Below, piece by piece: positions 11,255 through 57,837 of a stretch of DNA of 63,018 bases; within the stretch, counting starts at the first letter, position 1; every line of letters starts with the position of its first letter. The DNA is from a virus. The notes beneath the pieces were generated by a model, which did no database searches, was not told the DNA's origin, and saw only the letters and a list, made by a program, of their open reading frames with translations. A program made the translations under genes and the position numbers. The stretch lies in UHGV virus genome UHGV-0170870; one strand, 5' to 3'.

Positions 11255-11261
11255 GCGGGGC

Positions 11262-11312
11262 TATTTAATTGACAGGCTTGTAAGGCGCGTGAGATGACAT
11301 GCACCTTACGAC
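11262..11312 (+). promoter_or_regulatory. promoter-like element, class 1, with flanking inverted half-sites
   Basis: ATTTAATTGACA-N17-AGATGA; half-sites CTTGTAAGG and CCTTACGA flank the -10 region. Confidence 0.5.
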
Positions 11313-15909: not shown

Positions 15910-16245
15910 TTGTCCATCCAATTCACCACACCGAAAGGGAACCCGGTCGTGATCCGGCGACCCGAGCTGATCGTGTCTATGGTCGGCTACGAGCGGTCAG
16001 ATCGCGAGACCGGCGAGATGCGGCAGAACACCGCCATCACCTTCGAGAACCGTGAGGTCGTCTTCGTGAGCGGCAGCGCGGACGTGATCGAAGCGGCGCT
16101 CGAAGAGCACGCACGCGTTGCGCGCCTCAACTCGGAATACTGCGACCGCTGCCCCGCCCTGGCGAACGCGTCCGAAGAGCTGAAGCAGTACGAGGCGGTC
16201 GTGGACGCCGCCGAGCCCCCGGCAGACACGGACAATCGCCTCTGA
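15910..16245 (+). CDS. hypothetical protein (start uncertain, TTG proposed)
   Basis: ORF-track start 15721 lies upstream of the predicted promoter; first plausible start is TTG 15910 after GAGG. Confidence 0.3.
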   Translation: MSIQFTTPKGNPVVIRRPELIVSMVGYERSDRETGEMRQNTAITFENREVVFVSGSADVIEAALEEHARVARLNSEYCDRCPALANASEELKQYEAVVDAAEPPADTDNRL

Positions 16246-16889
16246 TGACCGATCCGATGCGCGCCGTGCTCGACGGCACCGATCCCGACTCCGTGCTGGT
16301 CCGCGTCCGCACCGCCGAGGGCGTCGCCCTGGCGACCCGCAAGGACTACGGCCGTCCCATCGACTATCTGCGCTATCGCGTGAAGGACAAGATCAGCGAC
16401 GCGCAGTTCATGGCGGCCGAATACTACGCTGGCGACTACTTCGCGATCTCGCCGGTCGGCTCGAACACGATGGCGACGATCAATCACCTGATGATGGCCG
16501 TGCCTCTCTCGCCGGAGGATCGCCGCATGCTCGACCAAGAGGGCATCAACGGCGGACGCATGCACTCGAAGGGCGATTGCGGCGGAGCGCCGAAGGACCC
16601 GAGCGACCGCATGCTGAACGCGGCGTTCGCGCTGAAGCGTGTCGACGATCAACTCGACCGCGTCCAACGCGAGCTGCTCCGCGATCTGCTCATCCGCGAA
16701 CACACGGTCGGCACCATTGCGCAGCGATGGCGATGGTCGCCCGAGCAGGCTGGCATCATGGTCCGCTACGCGCTGCATCGCCTGGTCGACGTGTACGAGA
16801 ACATCAACCCCGACTTCGCGCTGTATCTGCGGCAAGAGCGCGAACGCAAGAACGAAGGCCGCGCCAACCGCAAGGGACGCCGACGCTGA
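16245..16889 (+). CDS. hypothetical protein with C-terminal HTH-like region
   Basis: 214-aa ORF; TVGTIAQRWRWSPEQAGIMVRYALHRL resembles a sigma-region-4-like HTH. Confidence 0.45.
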   Translation: MTDPMRAVLDGTDPDSVLVRVRTAEGVALATRKDYGRPIDYLRYRVKDKISDAQFMAAEYYAGDYFAISPVGSNTMATINHLMMAVPLSPEDRRMLDQEGINGGRMHSKGDCGGAPKDPSDRMLNAAFALKRVDDQLDRVQRELLRDLLIREHTVGTIAQRWRWSPEQAGIMVRYALHRLVDVYENINPDFALYLRQERERKNEGRANRKGRRR

Positions 16890-17181: not shown

Positions 17182-17730
17182 ATGCTTTTCCCGTACCGCA
17201 TGATGGTGGTCGGTCATGGCCGACACGGCAAAGACACTGCCGCTGAAATTCTGCGCGATCACTATGGCGCGACGTTCGTCTCGTCGAGCTGGTTCATGGC
17301 AGAGCGTGTCGTGTTTCCGTACTTCTGCGAGAAGTACCCCGGCAAGTATGCCTCGGCGCAAGAGTGCTACGATGACCGCGCGAACGAGCGCTCGACGTGG
17401 TTCAATCTGATCGCCGAGAGCAATGCGGCCGATCTCACGAAGTTGGGTCGCGCGATCTTCGCGAAGTACGATCTCTACGTCGGCAACAGGAACGCCCGCG
17501 AGTTTCACGCCCTGCGGAACGCCAGCGTGTTCGACATCTCGATTTGGATCGACGCGTGCGAGCGCCTCGAATACCGCGAGCCCCGCACGTCCCTCACAAT
17601 CGAGCCCTGGATGTGCGATTACGTGGTCGACAACAACGGCACCCAGGCCGATCTCAAGCGGAACCTGGCCTCGCTGATGCACGGATTGCGGACCAAGTCC
17701 TTGATCCAAAAGGGATTGTCAGCAGCGTGA
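17182..17730 (+). CDS. P-loop kinase-like protein (possible deoxynucleoside monophosphate kinase)
   Basis: N-terminal VVGHGRHGKDTAAE resembles phage dNMP kinase N-termini. Confidence 0.4.
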   Translation: MLFPYRMMVVGHGRHGKDTAAEILRDHYGATFVSSSWFMAERVVFPYFCEKYPGKYASAQECYDDRANERSTWFNLIAESNAADLTKLGRAIFAKYDLYVGNRNAREFHALRNASVFDISIWIDACERLEYREPRTSLTIEPWMCDYVVDNNGTQADLKRNLASLMHGLRTKSLIQKGLSAA

Positions 17731-17760
17731 CCTGACAAGCCGGCCGAGGGAAGTTTGTGA

Positions 17761-17803
17761 GGGGAAAAAGTTGACGTTGGGATGTCAACTGCCTATTTTC
17801 CCC
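17761..17803. promoter_or_regulatory. 43-bp nested palindrome (candidate operator or centromere-like site)
   Basis: GGGGAAAA-AGTTGAC-GTTGGGAT-GTCAACT-GCCTA-TTTTCCCC. Confidence 0.4.
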
Positions 17804-17940
17804 ATACGGACAAATGGGCGAGGGGCCGGAACGAGAGTTACCCGGCATCGCCTAGTCTGAACCGACCCCGGCCTTGGCCGACATTCCGAACCCCGGCGCT
17901 TCAGTGCGTCGGGGTTTCGCGTTTCCACTAGGAGCCCGTC

Positions 17941-18126
17941 ATGGGATGCAACTGCGGAAAGCGCCGCGATCTCACGGCGCAGGCGATCAAGAACGTTCGC
18001 ACCGGCAACTTCGACGCCGCTCGTCAGAACGCGCAACGCTTCGTGAAGACGTTGCAGCTCGACGCGCGCAACATCGCGCGCAGCGTGGGGCGCTCGACGC
18101 TGATGAAGCGCCCGCCTTCAAGGTGA
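17941..18126 (+). CDS. hypothetical small protein
   Basis: 61-aa ORF preceded by GGAG. Confidence 0.3.
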   Translation: MGCNCGKRRDLTAQAIKNVRTGNFDAARQNAQRFVKTLQLDARNIARSVGRSTLMKRPPSR

Positions 18127-18127
18127 G

Positions 18128-18805
18128 ATGATGGCCGGTACGCAAACGAACTACACCGGCCCCACGAAGATATACCGCGCGTCACAGGGGCCGATGCCCG
18201 CGTCGGCATACACGCAGTCACATGGCGGCGTGATCTATGTCGACTTGACCGACGCGATGAAGCGCCTCACCGTGGCGTTCAACGTGTACGGCGACGAGGT
18301 CAAACACCGCGCGCTCTACAACGCGATCAACAAGCTCGGCGACAAGCTGCTCACGGCTGTTCGTCGCGACCTCGTCCAAACGACGGGTGCGAAGTACGGA
18401 CGCGTGATGAAAGCGGTTCACGCAGATCGCGCGCATCCCAATCGCCTGTTCTATCGCATCGTTGCGAGCGACAAGGCGATGAAGGTGAGCGACTTCGCGC
18501 GGTCGCTGACGCCAGGCAAGAAGAACCCGAGCGCCAAGCCTTGGAATCGCTCGCAGCGCTTCAAGGGTGCGTTCGTTATCCGCTTCAAGAACGGTGCCAC
18601 CGAGATCGTCAAGCGTATCGGGAAGCACAACAAGAGCGGCAAGATCAGAACATTGTGGGGTCCGATCATCCCGAAGGAAATGATCCGGCCCGGCAACCCG
18701 AGCACGTACCACATTGCTTCGGCGATCCCGACGCAGTTGGGGCCGGTGCTCATGCACGAACTCGAACAAGCCGTGATCCGCGCGAAAGCGGCGAGCGGCA
18801 CATAA
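18128..18805 (+). CDS. hypothetical protein
   Basis: 225-aa ORF upstream of ParA-like gene. Confidence 0.45.
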   Translation: MMAGTQTNYTGPTKIYRASQGPMPASAYTQSHGGVIYVDLTDAMKRLTVAFNVYGDEVKHRALYNAINKLGDKLLTAVRRDLVQTTGAKYGRVMKAVHADRAHPNRLFYRIVASDKAMKVSDFARSLTPGKKNPSAKPWNRSQRFKGAFVIRFKNGATEIVKRIGKHNKSGKIRTLWGPIIPKEMIRPGNPSTYHIASAIPTQLGPVLMHELEQAVIRAKAASGT

Positions 18806-18817
18806 CCGGAGACCCCC

Positions 18818-19465
18818 ATGAACATCCCGCATCTGGTATTCGTCGGCGCTGACAAAGGTGGCGTCGGCAAGACCATGCTGAGCCGCGCACTGCTCGGCTA
18901 CTACGGTGCCAACGGCATCGACTTCCGCGCGTTCGACACGCAATCCCCGAGCGGCGGCCTGCAACGTTTCTTTCCTGGCCGCGCGCAGATCGTGGACATC
19001 ACCAAGTCGACCGATCAGGTCAAGGTGTTCGACGACCTGGCATCGACCCAGGTGACCGTCGTCGACGTGTGCGCCGGTCTGTTGTCGCCCACGCTGAAGA
19101 CGCTCGACGTTGTCGGCTTCTTCGACGCGGCGAAGCAGAACAAGCTGCGCATCACTGTGCTGCATGTCGTCGGTCCTGCGACGCAATCGCTCGACGAGAT
19201 CAAGCCCGTGATGGCAGCGCTCGCAGGATCGAAGCACGTTGTGCTCGCGAACCATATCGACGACACCGCGTACGATGTACCGGCTGGCGCGCTCAACATT
19301 CCCCGGCTGGATGGGGAAGCGGCGAAGGCCGTCGACGCGGTCGCGCAACCGTTCCACGACTTCATCGGAAGCCAGGCGTCCTTCGTGCTGCGCGGCTACA
19401 CGCGAAGCTGGTTGAAGGACGTGTTCGCGCAGTTCGACGCTGCGCAGCTCAACAACCTGGCCTGA
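18818..19465 (+). CDS. ParA/MinD-family partition ATPase (small ParA)
   Basis: Deviant Walker A VGADKGGVGKT near N-terminus; 215 aa. Confidence 0.6.
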   Translation: MNIPHLVFVGADKGGVGKTMLSRALLGYYGANGIDFRAFDTQSPSGGLQRFFPGRAQIVDITKSTDQVKVFDDLASTQVTVVDVCAGLLSPTLKTLDVVGFFDAAKQNKLRITVLHVVGPATQSLDEIKPVMAALAGSKHVVLANHIDDTAYDVPAGALNIPRLDGEAAKAVDAVAQPFHDFIGSQASFVLRGYTRSWLKDVFAQFDAAQLNNLA

Positions 19466-20344
19466 TACACAGACAAGAGCCCCTCATGCCTCTGACCATA
19501 AAGGCGTTGCCGTAGACCACGGCCGCGTGCGTCACGTGTGTTCAGGGCCATCCACTATGCGCTAGGTCAGCGCCGTGTCGCGGATGGGCGCTATTCGGGG
19601 AATAGCAGGCAAGGTGAGGGCACCCGCCATATGAAGGTCGGTGCGGCCTCGCCATCCCCGTGCAATTCGATACCCCCTCTGAACGACTTTTCTCAGAACG
19701 AGAAAACGAAAATTCGCAGAACGAAAAACCAAAAATTCACGTTCTGCGAAACGAGCTGAGTGGCATGGATCAAGGGCGAGAGAACTGCGCTCACAGGGAT
19801 CATCAGCTCATACCCCAAACGAGCTGTGCATCACCGTTATGAACGATGCGCTTCACGATCCATGCCGCTCACCCAAACAGCACGCGTTGAGGCGCGTGGA
19901 GCCAAGCGATTGGCTCGCCAGGATACGAGCAGACGGGGGTCATGCTCTCCTGGCTCTGTGCGACCCGCGACGATGAGTAGATACGGCGCTGGCGGGAGCG
20001 ACGTGTCGAATACCCCGTCGCGGGTCGCAACCCGTCCGCTCGCGCGAGCACGCGCACGCACGCGCGGAAAAATTTTTTTTCGAGAGCATGTTGGTTTTGG
20101 AGATCGCCAAAATCGCAGTTGGGCGGATTGATGACAGTGCGATCTCGTCAGTGCTCAAAAGCCACAATCGCCGAGGTATGCGCGGCCACTCGGCCGAAAA
20201 CGCGGTGTGGCATTTCGATAAAAGTGCAACATGCCTCTAGGATCGCATTAGGCGCGCGCCCATGCGCTCAATCCGTCGCCCGGTATTTCGTACCATTGGG
20301 GCGGGTTGAGCGAATGAGCGGCGCGGAATTGGACGAAAAAAAAA

Positions 20345-20408
20345 CGCCGCTAAGGATCAACTCCCTAGCGGCGTTTTCGGCTTAAACCCTAGCGTCGCAA
20401 CGCTAGGG
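20345..20408. terminator. bidirectional terminator region (two hairpins)
   Basis: A9 then CGCCGCTA...TAGCGGCG stem then TTTT; second hairpin CCCTAGCG-TCGCAA-CGCTAGGG; sits between convergent transcription units. Confidence 0.55.
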
Positions 20409-20513
20409 CAAAGCTATGGCGGTTCGTCGCACGAATCGCCCGCGCCGTTATCGGCGCATGGCAAGCAAGCGAGGGCAAAGCACGTCATAGCAAAATCGCG
20501 GTTTGTCATCTCG

Positions 20514-20696: not shown

Positions 20697-20717
20697 GGCG
20701 TTAGTACCTTTCGACTT

Positions 20718-20775
20718 GGACTCATCAGTGGCCGCGTAACGGCCAGACCGCGCTACCTGGCGCGCGGTTTCGTCC
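20718..20775 (-). ncRNA. type II hammerhead ribozyme motif, copy 1
   Basis: RNA 5' GGAC-GAAA-[CCGCGC GCCAGGUA GCGCGG]-UC/UGGCCG UUACG CGGCCA-CUGAUGA-GUCC: all core nucleotides, GUC cleavage triplet, stems I and III as hairpins, stem II closed by the ends. Confidence 0.8.
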
Positions 20776-21690: not shown

Positions 21691-21710
21691 TGGCGTTAGT
21701 ACCTTTCGTT

Positions 21711-21763
21711 GGACTCATCAGTGGCCGCGTAACGGCCAGACCGCGCTAGGCGCGGTTTCGTCC
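21711..21763 (-). ncRNA. type II hammerhead ribozyme motif, copy 2
   Basis: Same core as copy 1; stem III loop is CUA instead of GCCAGGUA, a loop-size change that preserves pairing. Confidence 0.8.
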
Positions 21764-22898: not shown

Positions 22899-22919
22899 GG
22901 CGTTGTTTCCTTTCGACTT

Positions 22920-22972
22920 GGACTCATCAGTGGCCGCGTGACGGCCAGACCGCGCTAGGCGCGGTTTCGTCC
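22920..22972 (-). ncRNA. type II hammerhead ribozyme motif, copy 3
   Basis: Same core; stem I loop UCACG instead of UUACG; followed by RBS and ATG 22898. Confidence 0.8.
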
Positions 22973-24018: not shown

Positions 24019-24402
24019 ATGGCAAACACGTCGCATTCGCCTCGTCGCCGGGGCGGTGTTGACGCTTGCGTCAACGAACTACCGAAGACCATCAAGATCG
24101 GTGCCTACGATTGGACGATCTGCATCCGAGATGGAGCGGACGACAAGTACGGTCAAGCCGATTTCGAGTACAGCCAGATCAACATCTGGCCGAGAAACCT
24201 AACGAGCCCCGGTCACGGCGTCGGAATAGTGCTGCATGAATGCCTGCACGTCATATTCGACAACCACGGGCTCGGCAGACTGAAGCGGGATAAAGAGGAT
24301 CGTGAAGAGCAGATCGTTCTCGGCTTCGAGGCGGGCCTGGTCTCGCTGTTCCGCGACAATCCGAAGCTGCTCGTCTGGATGAGGCGGTGGCTTCATGGCT
24401 GA
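24019..24402 (+). CDS. hypothetical protein with HExxH zinc-metallopeptidase-like motif
   Basis: VLHECLHVIF motif; ATG 24019 with GGAG RBS; immediately upstream of terminase small subunit; ORF track starts at 23965. Confidence 0.45.
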   Translation: MANTSHSPRRRGGVDACVNELPKTIKIGAYDWTICIRDGADDKYGQADFEYSQINIWPRNLTSPGHGVGIVLHECLHVIFDNHGLGRLKRDKEDREEQIVLGFEAGLVSLFRDNPKLLVWMRRWLHG

Positions 24403-47795: not shown

Positions 47796-47826
47796 CAGCC
47801 TCTCAGCTCTATCAGTCGCAGAAACG

Positions 47827-47861
47827 GCCGTCCCTCGGGGCGGCCGTTCTGCATTCAAGGA
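47827..47861 (+). other. GC-rich hairpin after tail-fiber assembly gene (no U-tract)
   Basis: GCAGAAACGGCCG-TCCCTCGGGG-CGGCCGTTCTGC; same loop as the 30632 and 35791 hairpins. Confidence 0.4.
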
Positions 47862-49350: not shown

Positions 49351-49361
49351 CGTGTGGACTG

Positions 49362-49412
49362 CCATTTAATTGACGGAACCGATAGGTCTGTGAGATAGCA
49401 GACCTTACAGTC
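49362..49412 (+). promoter_or_regulatory. promoter-like element, class 1
   Basis: ATTTAATTGACG-N17-AGATAG followed by GCAGACCTTACAG; upstream of phosphoesterase gene. Confidence 0.5.
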
Positions 49413-55993: not shown

Positions 55994-57837
55994 CAGTCTG
56001 TCTCCACGCGTTTGAAGTAGACGCGGTAGACCGAGAAGCGGGTCTTGACGATCACGTCGCCGTGTTGGTCGAAGAACATCTCTTCGATGCGGCTTGTGGT
56101 GATCGGCTCGCCGTCGATGAAGCGACCCTTGGTGTCGCCGTAGACAGGGCCTTTGACGCAAGGCGCATGCGTCGGATCGCTGGCCGTATCGTTGTAGAAG
56201 ACCGCTTCCTTGATAGTGCCGTGGACCTGCATAGGTTCCTTTCCGAGAGGCTTGCGATTCTCCGCCCACACGAACTTGTTCTCCGTGGGGCTGAGCGACT
56301 TCGAGTTCTGATCGCCAAGCGTCTCGGCGACGAGAGCCCACATGGGGTGATGGTGGGAGCCCGCGCCGAGCCTCCACTGCGTCGTGTTCTGATTGACGAA
56401 CTCGCGGAAGAGGCGCAGCGCGGTTGTCGGGTCGATGGCGGCCATCAGAACTTCTTCCCGTTGGCAGCCAGGCGCGCTTCCGGCTTGTGGTCCGCGCGAT
56501 GCTTGTTGTACTCGCGCTTCCGGCTTGTGGTCCGCGCGATGCTTGTTGTACTCGCGCTTCTCGGCGACAGCGGTCCACAGGTCGTAGCCGTGCTGCTTCG
56601 CGTACCCTTCGATCAACGCGATGGCGTGGATCAGCCGCAACGCGCGATCGCGATTCGACATTGCCCGGTTGACGTTCGTCACCATGCGGCTGATGCGGAG
56701 CAACGCCTGACCCTTGTTGGCCGGGAGATCGTCGACAGGGGTCTTGAAGTTGAACGACGACGAGAGCGGAATGCTACCGAGGATGTCCCCGATGCGAATG
56801 ACAGCGTCGGCCAACTCGACTTCCGCCATCTTCCGCTTCGGCAGATGGTCGTCCATCAAGTTCTTGCGCTCACCTTCCATACACTCCGCCAGCTCGGACA
56901 CGACGAGCATGAGCATCTCGCCCATGTTGCGGTTGAGCTTTTCGCCGGTCGCCGGATCGTGCCACCAGTGCGCGTTGGCCGCATGGACTTCCTGCGCCCA
57001 TGCGTTCAGGCTTGCAGGACGGCCCTGCTCGAAGCGACGAAAGTCCCATCCCCCGCTCTCGCCCTTGTTGTAGTCGTCGTTTTCGAGAACAGCGTATCCG
57101 TTGTGGAAGCCGACGATGTTGTACGTCTTGCCGACCGTTAGACGACGGTTACCCTCGATGCAGCGAGCGGGGCCAAGCTTCAGCGCGCCCTTCTTCCGAT
57201 TCCACACGTCAAGCGCCTTCTCGGCCTGTGCGCGCGTCACGAACATCGACGCCGAGGGCGGAACGTCGCCAGCCGTGAACAGGTCATCGTCCTCGTTGAC
57301 ACGCGGGTCGATGTACGGCGTGCCGATCCACGGACGCTGCTCCTGCATGCGGGGCAGGGCGCGCGACGACGGACGCATCTGTTCGCCGTACAGTTCGCGC
57401 GGCGCGAGCGGCTTGGCGTCTGCGGGCAGAACGTCCTCGTTGAAGGACGCCTCGCGGTCGCGCAGCGCGTTCGCGACCTCGGACGGTTCGAGGCGTTGCG
57501 GCAACTCGGCCAGTTTCTTGCGGGCGAACTCCGCGACGGCCGGGAGGTCTTCCGGCTTCACGTCGGTCAGCCGGTTGGCCTTTCCGTGGACCCTGACGGC
57601 CGTGACAACGTGGAGCCTGTCGGGGTACGCGTCGCGCAGCTTCACCAAGAGCGCCTTGACCTCAGAGTGCGTCAAGGTGGGAGGCGCAGGCGGAGCGCCG
57701 GTCTTCGCAAAGGCGATCAGATCGGCACGGAGCTGCGCCGCCATCGCAGTTTCGATAGCCTCGCGCGTCGCACGATAGCTGCCGCCGAAGTCCTTCGGGA
57801 TGAGAAACAGAACAGTGGGGGTCATGGTAGGTGACAA
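55993..57837 (-). CDS. fusion ORF: unknown N-terminal domain + MazG-like NTP pyrophosphohydrolase-like domain, fused in frame to a downstream 150-aa ORF by a 40-bp tandem duplication
   Basis: MazG-like segment EMLMLVVSELAECMEGER...AEVELADAVIRIGDILG; removing one 40-bp repeat unit restores a stop (…HKPEARLAANGKKF*) overlapping ATG of the MAAIDPTT ORF. Confidence 0.5.
   Translation of the reverse strand: MSPTMTPTVLFLIPKDFGGSYRATREAIETAMAAQLRADLIAFAKTGAPPAPPTLTHSEVKALLVKLRDAYPDRLHVVTAVRVHGKANRLTDVKPEDLPAVAEFARKKLAELPQRLEPSEVANALRDREASFNEDVLPADAKPLAPRELYGEQMRPSSRALPRMQEQRPWIGTPYIDPRVNEDDDLFTAGDVPPSASMFVTRAQAEKALDVWNRKKGALKLGPARCIEGNRRLTVGKTYNIVGFHNGYAVLENDDYNKGESGGWDFRRFEQGRPASLNAWAQEVHAANAHWWHDPATGEKLNRNMGEMLMLVVSELAECMEGERKNLMDDHLPKRKMAEVELADAVIRIGDILGSIPLSSSFNFKTPVDDLPANKGQALLRISRMVTNVNRAMSNRDRALRLIHAIALIEGYAKQHGYDLWTAVAEKREYNKHRADHKPEARVQQASRGPQAGSAPGCQREEVLMAAIDPTTALRLFREFVNQNTTQWRLGAGSHHHPMWALVAETLGDQNSKSLSPTENKFVWAENRKPLGKEPMQVHGTIKEAVFYNDTASDPTHAPCVKGPVYGDTKGRFIDGEPITTSRIEEMFFDQHGDVIVKTRFSVYRVYFKRVETD
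56481..56560. repeat. Perfect 40-bp tandem duplication (2 units) inside coding sequence
   Basis: Units 56481-56520 and 56521-56560 are identical: CGGCTTGTGGTCCGCGCGATGCTTGTTGTACTCGCGCTTC; 40 is not a multiple of 3. Confidence 0.9.

Follow-up and report, generated by a model that had tools for sequence, protein, structure and literature searches.

A nested palindrome in a phage of alphaproteobacterial type is very probably the core of a conserved promoter and may be part of an antitermination switch

The window analyzed here, the whole 63,018 nt stretch of UHGV virus genome UHGV-0170870, is a tailed-phage genome (approximately 63 kb) of alphaproteobacterial type with a G+C content of 62%. Its DNA shows patchy similarity (67-83%) to phages of Bradyrhizobium, Rhodobacter and Roseobacter, and no close relative was found among 50,697 phage records. 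Three genome-collection matches are 100% identical copies of the same phage and are uninformative for comparison. The 100% identical phage was found in NRRL assemblies labelled Streptomyces iakyrus (63,072 bp), Phycicoccus jejuensis and Streptomyces xylophagus, and in public assemblies 70 blocks carry it, among them a 392-kb contig. Because the phage is alphaproteobacterial in character, the actinomycete records probably carry a contaminant, and a Bradyrhizobium-like host is more likely.

The genes of the locus are encoded on the + strand. The first of interest (bp 16245-16889) encodes a 214-aa DUF6456-like protein. A gene at bp 17182-17730 encodes a dNMP-kinase-like protein; the preliminary description had placed a kinase-like gene here, upstream of a palindrome, and relatives have Pfam DNMK at this position. 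The palindrome (bp 17761-17803) is followed by three genes. The first, with its AGGAG ribosome-binding site, occupies bp 17930-18126 (ORF at bp 17941-18126) and encodes a 61-aa protein (MGCNCG...), for which the AF2 model is a low-confidence helical hairpin with no ribbon-helix-helix or helix-turn-helix fold. The second (bp 18128-18805) encodes a tail-completion (gpZ/Neck1)-like protein with a late structural function (phrog_27, E-value: 6e-17; weak match to Pfam Minor_tail_Z), and the third (bp 18818-19465) encodes a small ParA/MinD-type P-loop ATPase with the deviant Walker A box GADKGGVGKT and a weak match to Pfam CbiA. The synteny of this ParA-like gene is retained in relatives. Past it are a gene-free stretch of 1 kb (no gene was called at bp 19466-20513 in four independent annotations), a bidirectional terminator with a 17-bp stem (bp 20340-20378) and a convergent block of minus-strand genes. 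As the unit contains only three genes and is ended by a terminator that faces convergent genes, it is not the main structural cluster.

Several other features were observed elsewhere in the window. Three 63-nt direct repeats on the minus strand (bp 20709-20775, 21703-21763 and 22911-22972) precede minus-strand genes and match the type II hammerhead ribozyme over its full length, though below threshold (RF02276; 28.8, 30.1 and 27.5 bits versus a gathering score of 37, E-values: 0.003-0.016). Judged by these matches, all three are candidates for self-cleaving ribozymes, located between the genes of a single phage operon. A perfect 40-nt tandem duplication lies inside a minus-strand coding region (bp 56473-56552). 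In the structural region, one terminator-like hairpin occurs twice on the + strand (bp 30626-30667 and 47818-47859; 88% identical), and the structural cluster contains several more + strand terminators.

Direct reading of bp 17761-17803 shows that the preliminary description of this site, a nested palindrome with two inverted copies of TTGAC inside an 8-bp outer repeat, is exact. The + strand sequence is GGGGAAAA-AGTTGAC-GTTGGGAT-GTCAACT-GCCTA-TTTTCCCC. The inner arms, AGTTGAC (bp 17769-17775) and GTCAACT (bp 17784-17790), form a perfect 7-bp repeat around an 8-nt loop, while the outer arms, GGGGAAAA (bp 17761-17768) and TTTTCCCC (bp 17796-17803), are perfect over 8 bp. A perfect 7+8 nested inverted repeat is found once in the window, at this position, versus 0.063 expected per 63-kb first-order Markov sequence; when the outer arm may be as short as 6 bp, approximately 0.8 nested repeats are expected by chance per 63 kb. 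The single strand folds with -19.3 kcal/mol on the + strand (z = -4.05, equalled by 0 of 200 dinucleotide shuffles) and with -17.9 kcal/mol on the minus strand (z over both strands approximately -4 to -4.6), and by absolute folding energy the site ranks only within the best 3% when all 43-nt windows of the genome (62% G+C) are compared. No further copy of the 43-bp palindrome was found in the window at up to 3 mismatches, and a search for other copies of the motif gave near matches at chance level only. Rfam analysis returned no matches at the gathering score across the window and, for bp 17600-18100 at E ≤ 10, only noise; no tRNA was found. The palindrome is real and moderately beyond chance, and its significance comes mainly from its position and conservation.

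Two additional inverted repeats were noted. One with the same half-sites, GTTGACGC-TT-GCGTCAAC (bp 24058-24075), sits 40 nt into the first gene of the structural cluster, where it encodes GVDACVNE; it is not conserved in the relative L029 and is probably due to chance. The other, TTGTCAG-N9-CTGACAA (bp 17716-17738), is perfect and spans the stop codon of the dNMP-kinase-like gene approximately 45 nt 5' of the -35 box described below. Copies of its right half, CT[G/A]ACAA, are found at differing distances in L001, L007, L018, L021, L022, L025 and L027.

A consensus scan of the + strand identified a sigma-70-type promoter at the palindrome, with TTGACG (bp 17771-17776) and TATTTT (bp 17794-17799) separated by a 17-nt spacer and matching 9 of 12 consensus positions. 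Because this match coincides with the palindrome, the -35 box falls in the left inner arm and the -10 box shares bases with the right outer arm. The left outer arm includes an A-tract immediately 5' of the -35 box, and the right inner arm carries, within the spacer, an inverted -35-like hexamer of the form (C/G)TCAA(C/G), a putative regulator-binding element that is referred to here as the spacer element. The match is the only intergenic one of its type and the only one at 15-21 kb; none was found at 1-15 kb, and the four others, at 21-61 kb, also reach 9 of 12 positions, are not above shuffles and lie within long ORFs. It is located between the stop codon at bp 17730 and the ATG at bp 17941, on the strand of the downstream genes, and its elements are conserved in position across 12 lineages, with a spacer of 17-18 nt. 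Very probably, a conserved promoter has this palindrome as its core, and the annotation that fits the site is a regulated promoter, neither centromere nor terminator. From the position of the -10 box, transcription is predicted to start at approximately bp 17804-17807.

A different class of promoter-like element is present elsewhere in the window. Approximately 40 nt long and of the form CTATTTAATTGAC-N5-CTTGTAAGG-N3-TGTGAGAT, it fronts three operons (bp 4115-4155 on the minus strand, bp 11259-11299 and 49357-49396 on the + strand) and combines a TTGAC -35 box with a -10 box of extended type. The conserved spacer of the three copies suggests a shared regulator. In several relatives, the region corresponding to the bp 17716-17738 repeat resembles this element.

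To follow the promoter across related phages, homologues of the 61-aa and gpZ-like proteins were collected, and upstream DNA could be used from 12 distinct lineages (the window, L001, L002/L003, L004, L007, L018, L019/L020, L021, L022/L023, L024, L025 and L027). All 12 share one order of elements: an AT-rich stretch (often GTGTTTAA), a -35 box, a G+C-rich stretch that separates it from the spacer element, the -10 box, an early motif, a leader, a terminator, a ribosome-binding site and the same small gene. The -35 box is TTGAC, at the same place, in eight lineages and TTGAG, TAGAC (twice) or TTGCA in the rest. The -10 box follows the pattern [T/C]A[T/G][A/T][A/T]N (TATATC, CATAAG, TATAAG, TAGAAC and similar in relatives), with a total spacer of 17-18 nt, and the early motif, of ACAAA/CAGAA type, is found 7-13 nt 3' of it in all lineages. 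A conserved non-sigma element is present between the two boxes in 10 of 12 lineages, in which (C/G)TCAA(C/G) is found 3-5 nt 5' of the -10 box; L004 and L027 lack TCAAC. As the adjoining spacer bases vary freely, the spacer element is constrained in its own right. Upstream of the promoter lies a dNMP kinase gene in most lineages, a gene of MazG/dGTP-diphosphohydrolase type (by the L024 annotation) in L002/L003 and L024, and unrelated genes in L027. Since the upstream gene differs between lineages, the promoter module belongs to the downstream genes. The lineages are related to one another, so this conservation is partly inherited.

The symmetry of the site is less constant than its promoter elements. 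In L021 (TTGCAT) and L018 (TAGACA) the left half has drifted but the right half persists, and the spacing between TTGA and TCAA ranges from 9 to 11 nt. Both half-sites of L007 have changed symmetrically (AGTTGAGG/CCTCAACT). In L001 the outer arms are GGGAGA/TCTCCC, altered on both sides at two positions; they are weakly recognizable in L004 and L024 and unrecognizable in most other lineages, and are thus lineage-specific. The hairpin of the promoter region has z-scores of -4.7 in the window, -3.3 in L001, -2.8 in L007 and -2.2 in L018, and is not significant in the other eight lineages (z > -1.5). The unconserved stability, the drifting left half, the variable distance and the behavior of the outer arms together argue that duplex sequence, not folded structure, is selected. 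Selection keeps a -35 box together with an inverted -35-like hexamer located in the spacer, both as duplex sequence, and among the forms that this arrangement takes, the window's perfect nested palindrome has the highest symmetry.

These data make it very improbable that the palindrome acts through folding, either as a cruciform or as a terminator, processing or stability hairpin of the upstream dNMP-kinase transcript. The stem-loop is stable on either strand, as the folding energies given above indicate, and our scan flagged the inner hairpin as weakly terminator-like. However, that stem has 3 G-C pairs, its stability is not conserved, relatives have no T-run after it, a genuine terminator lies approximately 100 nt downstream, and the module travels with the downstream genes even where a different gene lies upstream. 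We rejected the palindrome as an intrinsic terminator for want of a conserved G+C-rich stem with a U-tract, which agrees with the preliminary view that it was unlikely to be a simple one. The accompanying statement that there is no U-tract was nearly right: in the window TATTTT begins 4 nt past the inner stem, and the relatives have no T-run at that position.

The genuine terminator lies 90-120 nt downstream of the palindrome, at bp 17888-17925 (GAACCCCGGCGC-TTCAGT-GCGTCGGGGTTT followed by CGCGTTTCC). It folds with -22.8 kcal/mol (z = -4.6), and none of 200 shuffles was as good. Its U-tract is interrupted in the window (TTTCGCGTTT), and it was overlooked by the consensus scan. All relatives have a G+C-rich stem of 10-14 bp and a T-run at the same place, directly 5' of the ribosome-binding site. 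In the window, the terminator begins approximately 85 nt past the promoter and ends approximately 15 nt 5' of the first start codon, with AGGAG 5 nt after it. A terminator is thus found between the promoter and the genes in all lineages, the position expected if an antiterminator is loaded at the promoter. A tRNA-Trp(CCA) gene lies between the leader terminator and the small gene of L003 (bp 3717-3791), and its position implies that transcription passes the terminator in that phage.

The predicted leader between promoter and terminator (bp 17806-17887) contains the early motif ACAAAT (bp 17810-17815) and a local stem-loop. Across lineages, leaders are approximately 40 to 270 nt in length and very variable in sequence, and L024 is almost leaderless. 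A conserved leader RNA fold of the put or nut type was rejected: RNAalifold gave -1.2 kcal/mol with one compensatory pair in six sequences, and no family-wide fold was found. The length range, the absence of a family-wide fold and the absence of an Rfam match also make the leader too variable for a riboswitch-like attenuator. A promoter-proximal, -10-like pause element of the kind used by lambdoid Q proteins (A at position 2, T at position 6) was rejected as a general feature as well. TAGAAT, CAGAAT or GAGAAT is present in some lineages, whereas the window (ACAAAT), L001 and L022 do not have this pattern. We know of no requirement for a sigma-dependent pause element in the case of GafZ.

One alternative is that this is an ordinary strong constitutive promoter with a functionless palindrome. 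In this case promoter strength or common ancestry would account for the retention of TCAAC, the outer arms would be an A-tract, a T-rich -10 box and four chance G:C pairs, and the leader would be a small RNA or part of a simple attenuator. The outer arms are unconserved beyond L001, the chance expectation of 0.06 for the palindrome is low yet not negligible, the relatedness of the lineages accounts for part of the conservation, and leader plus terminator would give a discrete RNA of approximately 115 nt. However, the leader has neither the family-wide fold nor the Rfam match, nor the constant length, of a conserved small RNA. TCAA is also kept in 10 of 12 lineages while its flanks are free, and sigma-70 promoters normally put no constraint on that part of the spacer. 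We regard this alternative as improbable.

A second alternative is that the palindrome is the operator of a repressor or autoregulator. A dimeric protein bound to the dyad AGTTGAC-N8-GTCAACT would occlude RNA polymerase, and the terminator would either act as an attenuator in its own right or close the upstream operon. The protein could be a lysogeny-type repressor or one encoded by the operon itself, for example the 61-aa protein, possibly with the ParA-like ATPase as a co-repressor, as in type Ib partition operons. The dyad is perfect, overlaps the -35 box and spacer and is centered near -27, the classic position of a repressor operator. Both half-sites are kept in most lineages, the changes in L007 are symmetric, the outer arms co-vary between the window and L001, and a ParA-type ATPase is encoded within the operon. 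However, the right half persists in L021 and L018 where the left has diverged, and half-site spacing varies. No homologue of a repressor, Q, N or AlpA was found among 30 neighboring proteins, the 61-aa protein is predicted, at low confidence, to be a plain helical hairpin, and the constant terminator between promoter and gene is left unexplained. An operator is unlikely, though less so than a functionless palindrome, and is the main rival reading. The preliminary description had proposed a possible operator; the protein-binding role that this implies is plausible, but the -35 box, the -10 box and the downstream terminator had been overlooked.

The same description had offered a centromere-like site for the ParA-like operon as another possibility. 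A ParA-type Walker box protein is indeed encoded 1 kb downstream and the site is palindromic. We find a parS/parC function extremely improbable for three reasons. First, the palindrome is a single copy inside a promoter with no arrays, whereas a partition centromere has repeated sites, a cognate binding protein and adjacent par genes. Second, its conserved letters are those of promoter elements. Third, no ParB-like protein was recognized among the neighboring proteins. Repeats past the ParA-like gene, at bp 19690-19738, are better suited: these are 23-bp repeats, TTCGCAGAACGAAAAAACAAAAA (2.1 copies), and the 1-kb gene-free stretch around them also holds further copies of CAGAACGA and an inverted TTCTG. 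These repeats are a better centromere or origin candidate than the palindrome. Just 3' of the ParA-like gene, bp 20333-20414 on the minus strand show a full-length, near-threshold match to the plasmid antisense RNA family ctRNA_pGA1 (RF00236; 41.4 bits versus 45, E-value: 6e-6) that overlaps the bidirectional terminator at bp 20340-20378. The repeats, the ParA-like gene and the ctRNA-like match hint at a plasmid-like maintenance module.

A candidate regulator for the promoter is the 214-aa protein, which we propose to be an antiterminator or activator. Its gene is approximately 0.9 kb 5' of the palindrome, and lies 0.7-1.3 kb 5' of the promoter in all loci with enough flanking sequence. It is the best-conserved protein of the neighborhood (65-83% identity). 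In L027, which lacks TCAAC and is represented by a short contig, the two upstream proteins are unrelated to this family. The window protein matches Pfam DUF6456 with 22.6 bits, below the gathering threshold of 26.3; matches with E ≤ 0.01 were obtained for 23 of 24 family members (best E-value: 4e-7). The AlphaFold model is confident at residues 119-187, in a C-terminal domain with a helix-turn-helix resembling sigma region 4, and DUF6456 proteins are the nearest structural neighbors among predicted structures. The best match among predicted viral structures is a DUF6456 protein (full-length alignment, E-value: 5.7e-4), and the fold matches listed also include the DUF6456 protein from roseophage RDJL Phi 1. 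A tblastn search of 50,697 phage records gave no match. An exhaustive profile search for a link to GafZ or GafA returned 38 clusters, all from the same phage family, and a word-indexed search added none.

A possible sequence of events can be proposed from this arrangement. Host RNA polymerase would use a rightward sigma-70-type promoter in which the left inner arm serves as -35 box, the right inner arm as spacer element and the right outer arm as part of the -10 box. Transcripts would begin a few bases past bp 17803 and reach the terminator at bp 17888-17925 before the first gene. Because the terminator follows both the promoter and any read-through from the upstream operon, expression of the unit (the 61-aa protein, the tail-completion-like protein and the ParA-like ATPase) would need terminator read-through. 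The spacer element, alone or as a dyad with its -35 copy, would be the loading site for the DUF6456-like protein, which would board RNA polymerase at the promoter and render it terminator-resistant. We give a probability of roughly 45% to this reading, the one that we prefer, in which the conserved spacer half is the binding site of the DUF6456-like protein in an antitermination switch. Its weaker points are the sub-threshold family match, the interrupted U-tract, the shortness of the unit, the lack of a general pause element and the two lineages without TCAAC.

A broader proposal, possible but with the odds somewhat against it, is that true (non-domesticated) alphaproteobacterial phages run a late unit by a GafZ/GafA-type antiterminator acting at an inverted copy of the -35 box, with host sigma region 4 and the phage protein each reading one half of the palindrome. 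If true, this would be a phage-borne form of the gene transfer agent switch, combining a lambda-like architecture with a GafZ-like protein, and would offer a view onto the phage ancestry of gene transfer agent regulation. It would also provide a compact natural system, made up of one promoter, a 6-bp element, a terminator and a 214-aa protein, with about a dozen variants for the study of site recognition. In alphaproteobacteria, gene transfer agents have GafA and GafZ as their master switches.

Caulobacter GafZ is a homologue of the GafA C-terminal domain with a sigma-like helix-turn-helix; it binds a near-perfect palindrome between the -35 and -10 boxes of its single target promoter and associates with RNA polymerase and NusA/G/E, and the polymerase bypasses terminators (PMC11150451). 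The locus described here resembles this system, as far as sequence can tell, in having an inverted repeat in the -35/-10 region, a single site and downstream terminators to bypass, and the two share an alphaproteobacterial host range and phage-derived genes. They differ in several respects. The GafZ site (ZBE), GCGCCCG-CTGGCGC, has adjacent 7-bp arms wholly in the spacer, whereas AGTTGAC and GTCAACT are separated by 8 nt, with the -35 box itself serving as one arm. The Caulobacter promoter PgtaT has a degenerate -35 box and requires GafY and IHF, while the promoter here has a consensus -35 box, as in lambda PR', and no GafY-like partner was recognized. The Caulobacter terminator comes after the first gene and the one here before it. 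The DUF6456 match of the 214-aa protein is below threshold.

GafA, which activates the gene transfer agent of Rhodobacter, has homologues annotated as DUF6456; its C-terminal domain is sigma-like and dimeric and binds a promoter fragment with the -35 box, -10 box and start site (PMC9638019). GafA, at 382 aa, has a DnaA-like domain at its N terminus and a middle region that binds omega; the protein described here has 214 aa. Roseophages carry GafA homologues (PMC6363796), and the occurrence of DUF6456 proteins in true phages, including that of RDJL Phi 1 among the fold matches listed, is a point of likeness. A preprint links the sigma-region-4-like fold of GafA and GafZ to Q21 (10.1101/2024.11.20.624540).

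The location of the GafZ site was likened by its authors to lambda QBE and to ABE, the binding element of AlpA (PMC11150451). Pseudomonas aeruginosa AlpA likewise has its binding element between -35 and -10 (PMC11150451), a comparison of location only; AlpA belongs to an unrelated protein family and acts in the setting of chromosomal lysis genes. Lambda Q controls the whole late region, whereas the unit described here has three genes; no sequence similarity to any Q family was found, and the pause element is inconsistent among the lineages. By analogy with lambda PR', QBE, the 6S leader and tR', and with phage 21 Q, the promoter-terminator layout is that of promoter-loaded processive antitermination, and the proposed switch would be the counterpart of lambda Q acting at QBE, PR' and tR'.
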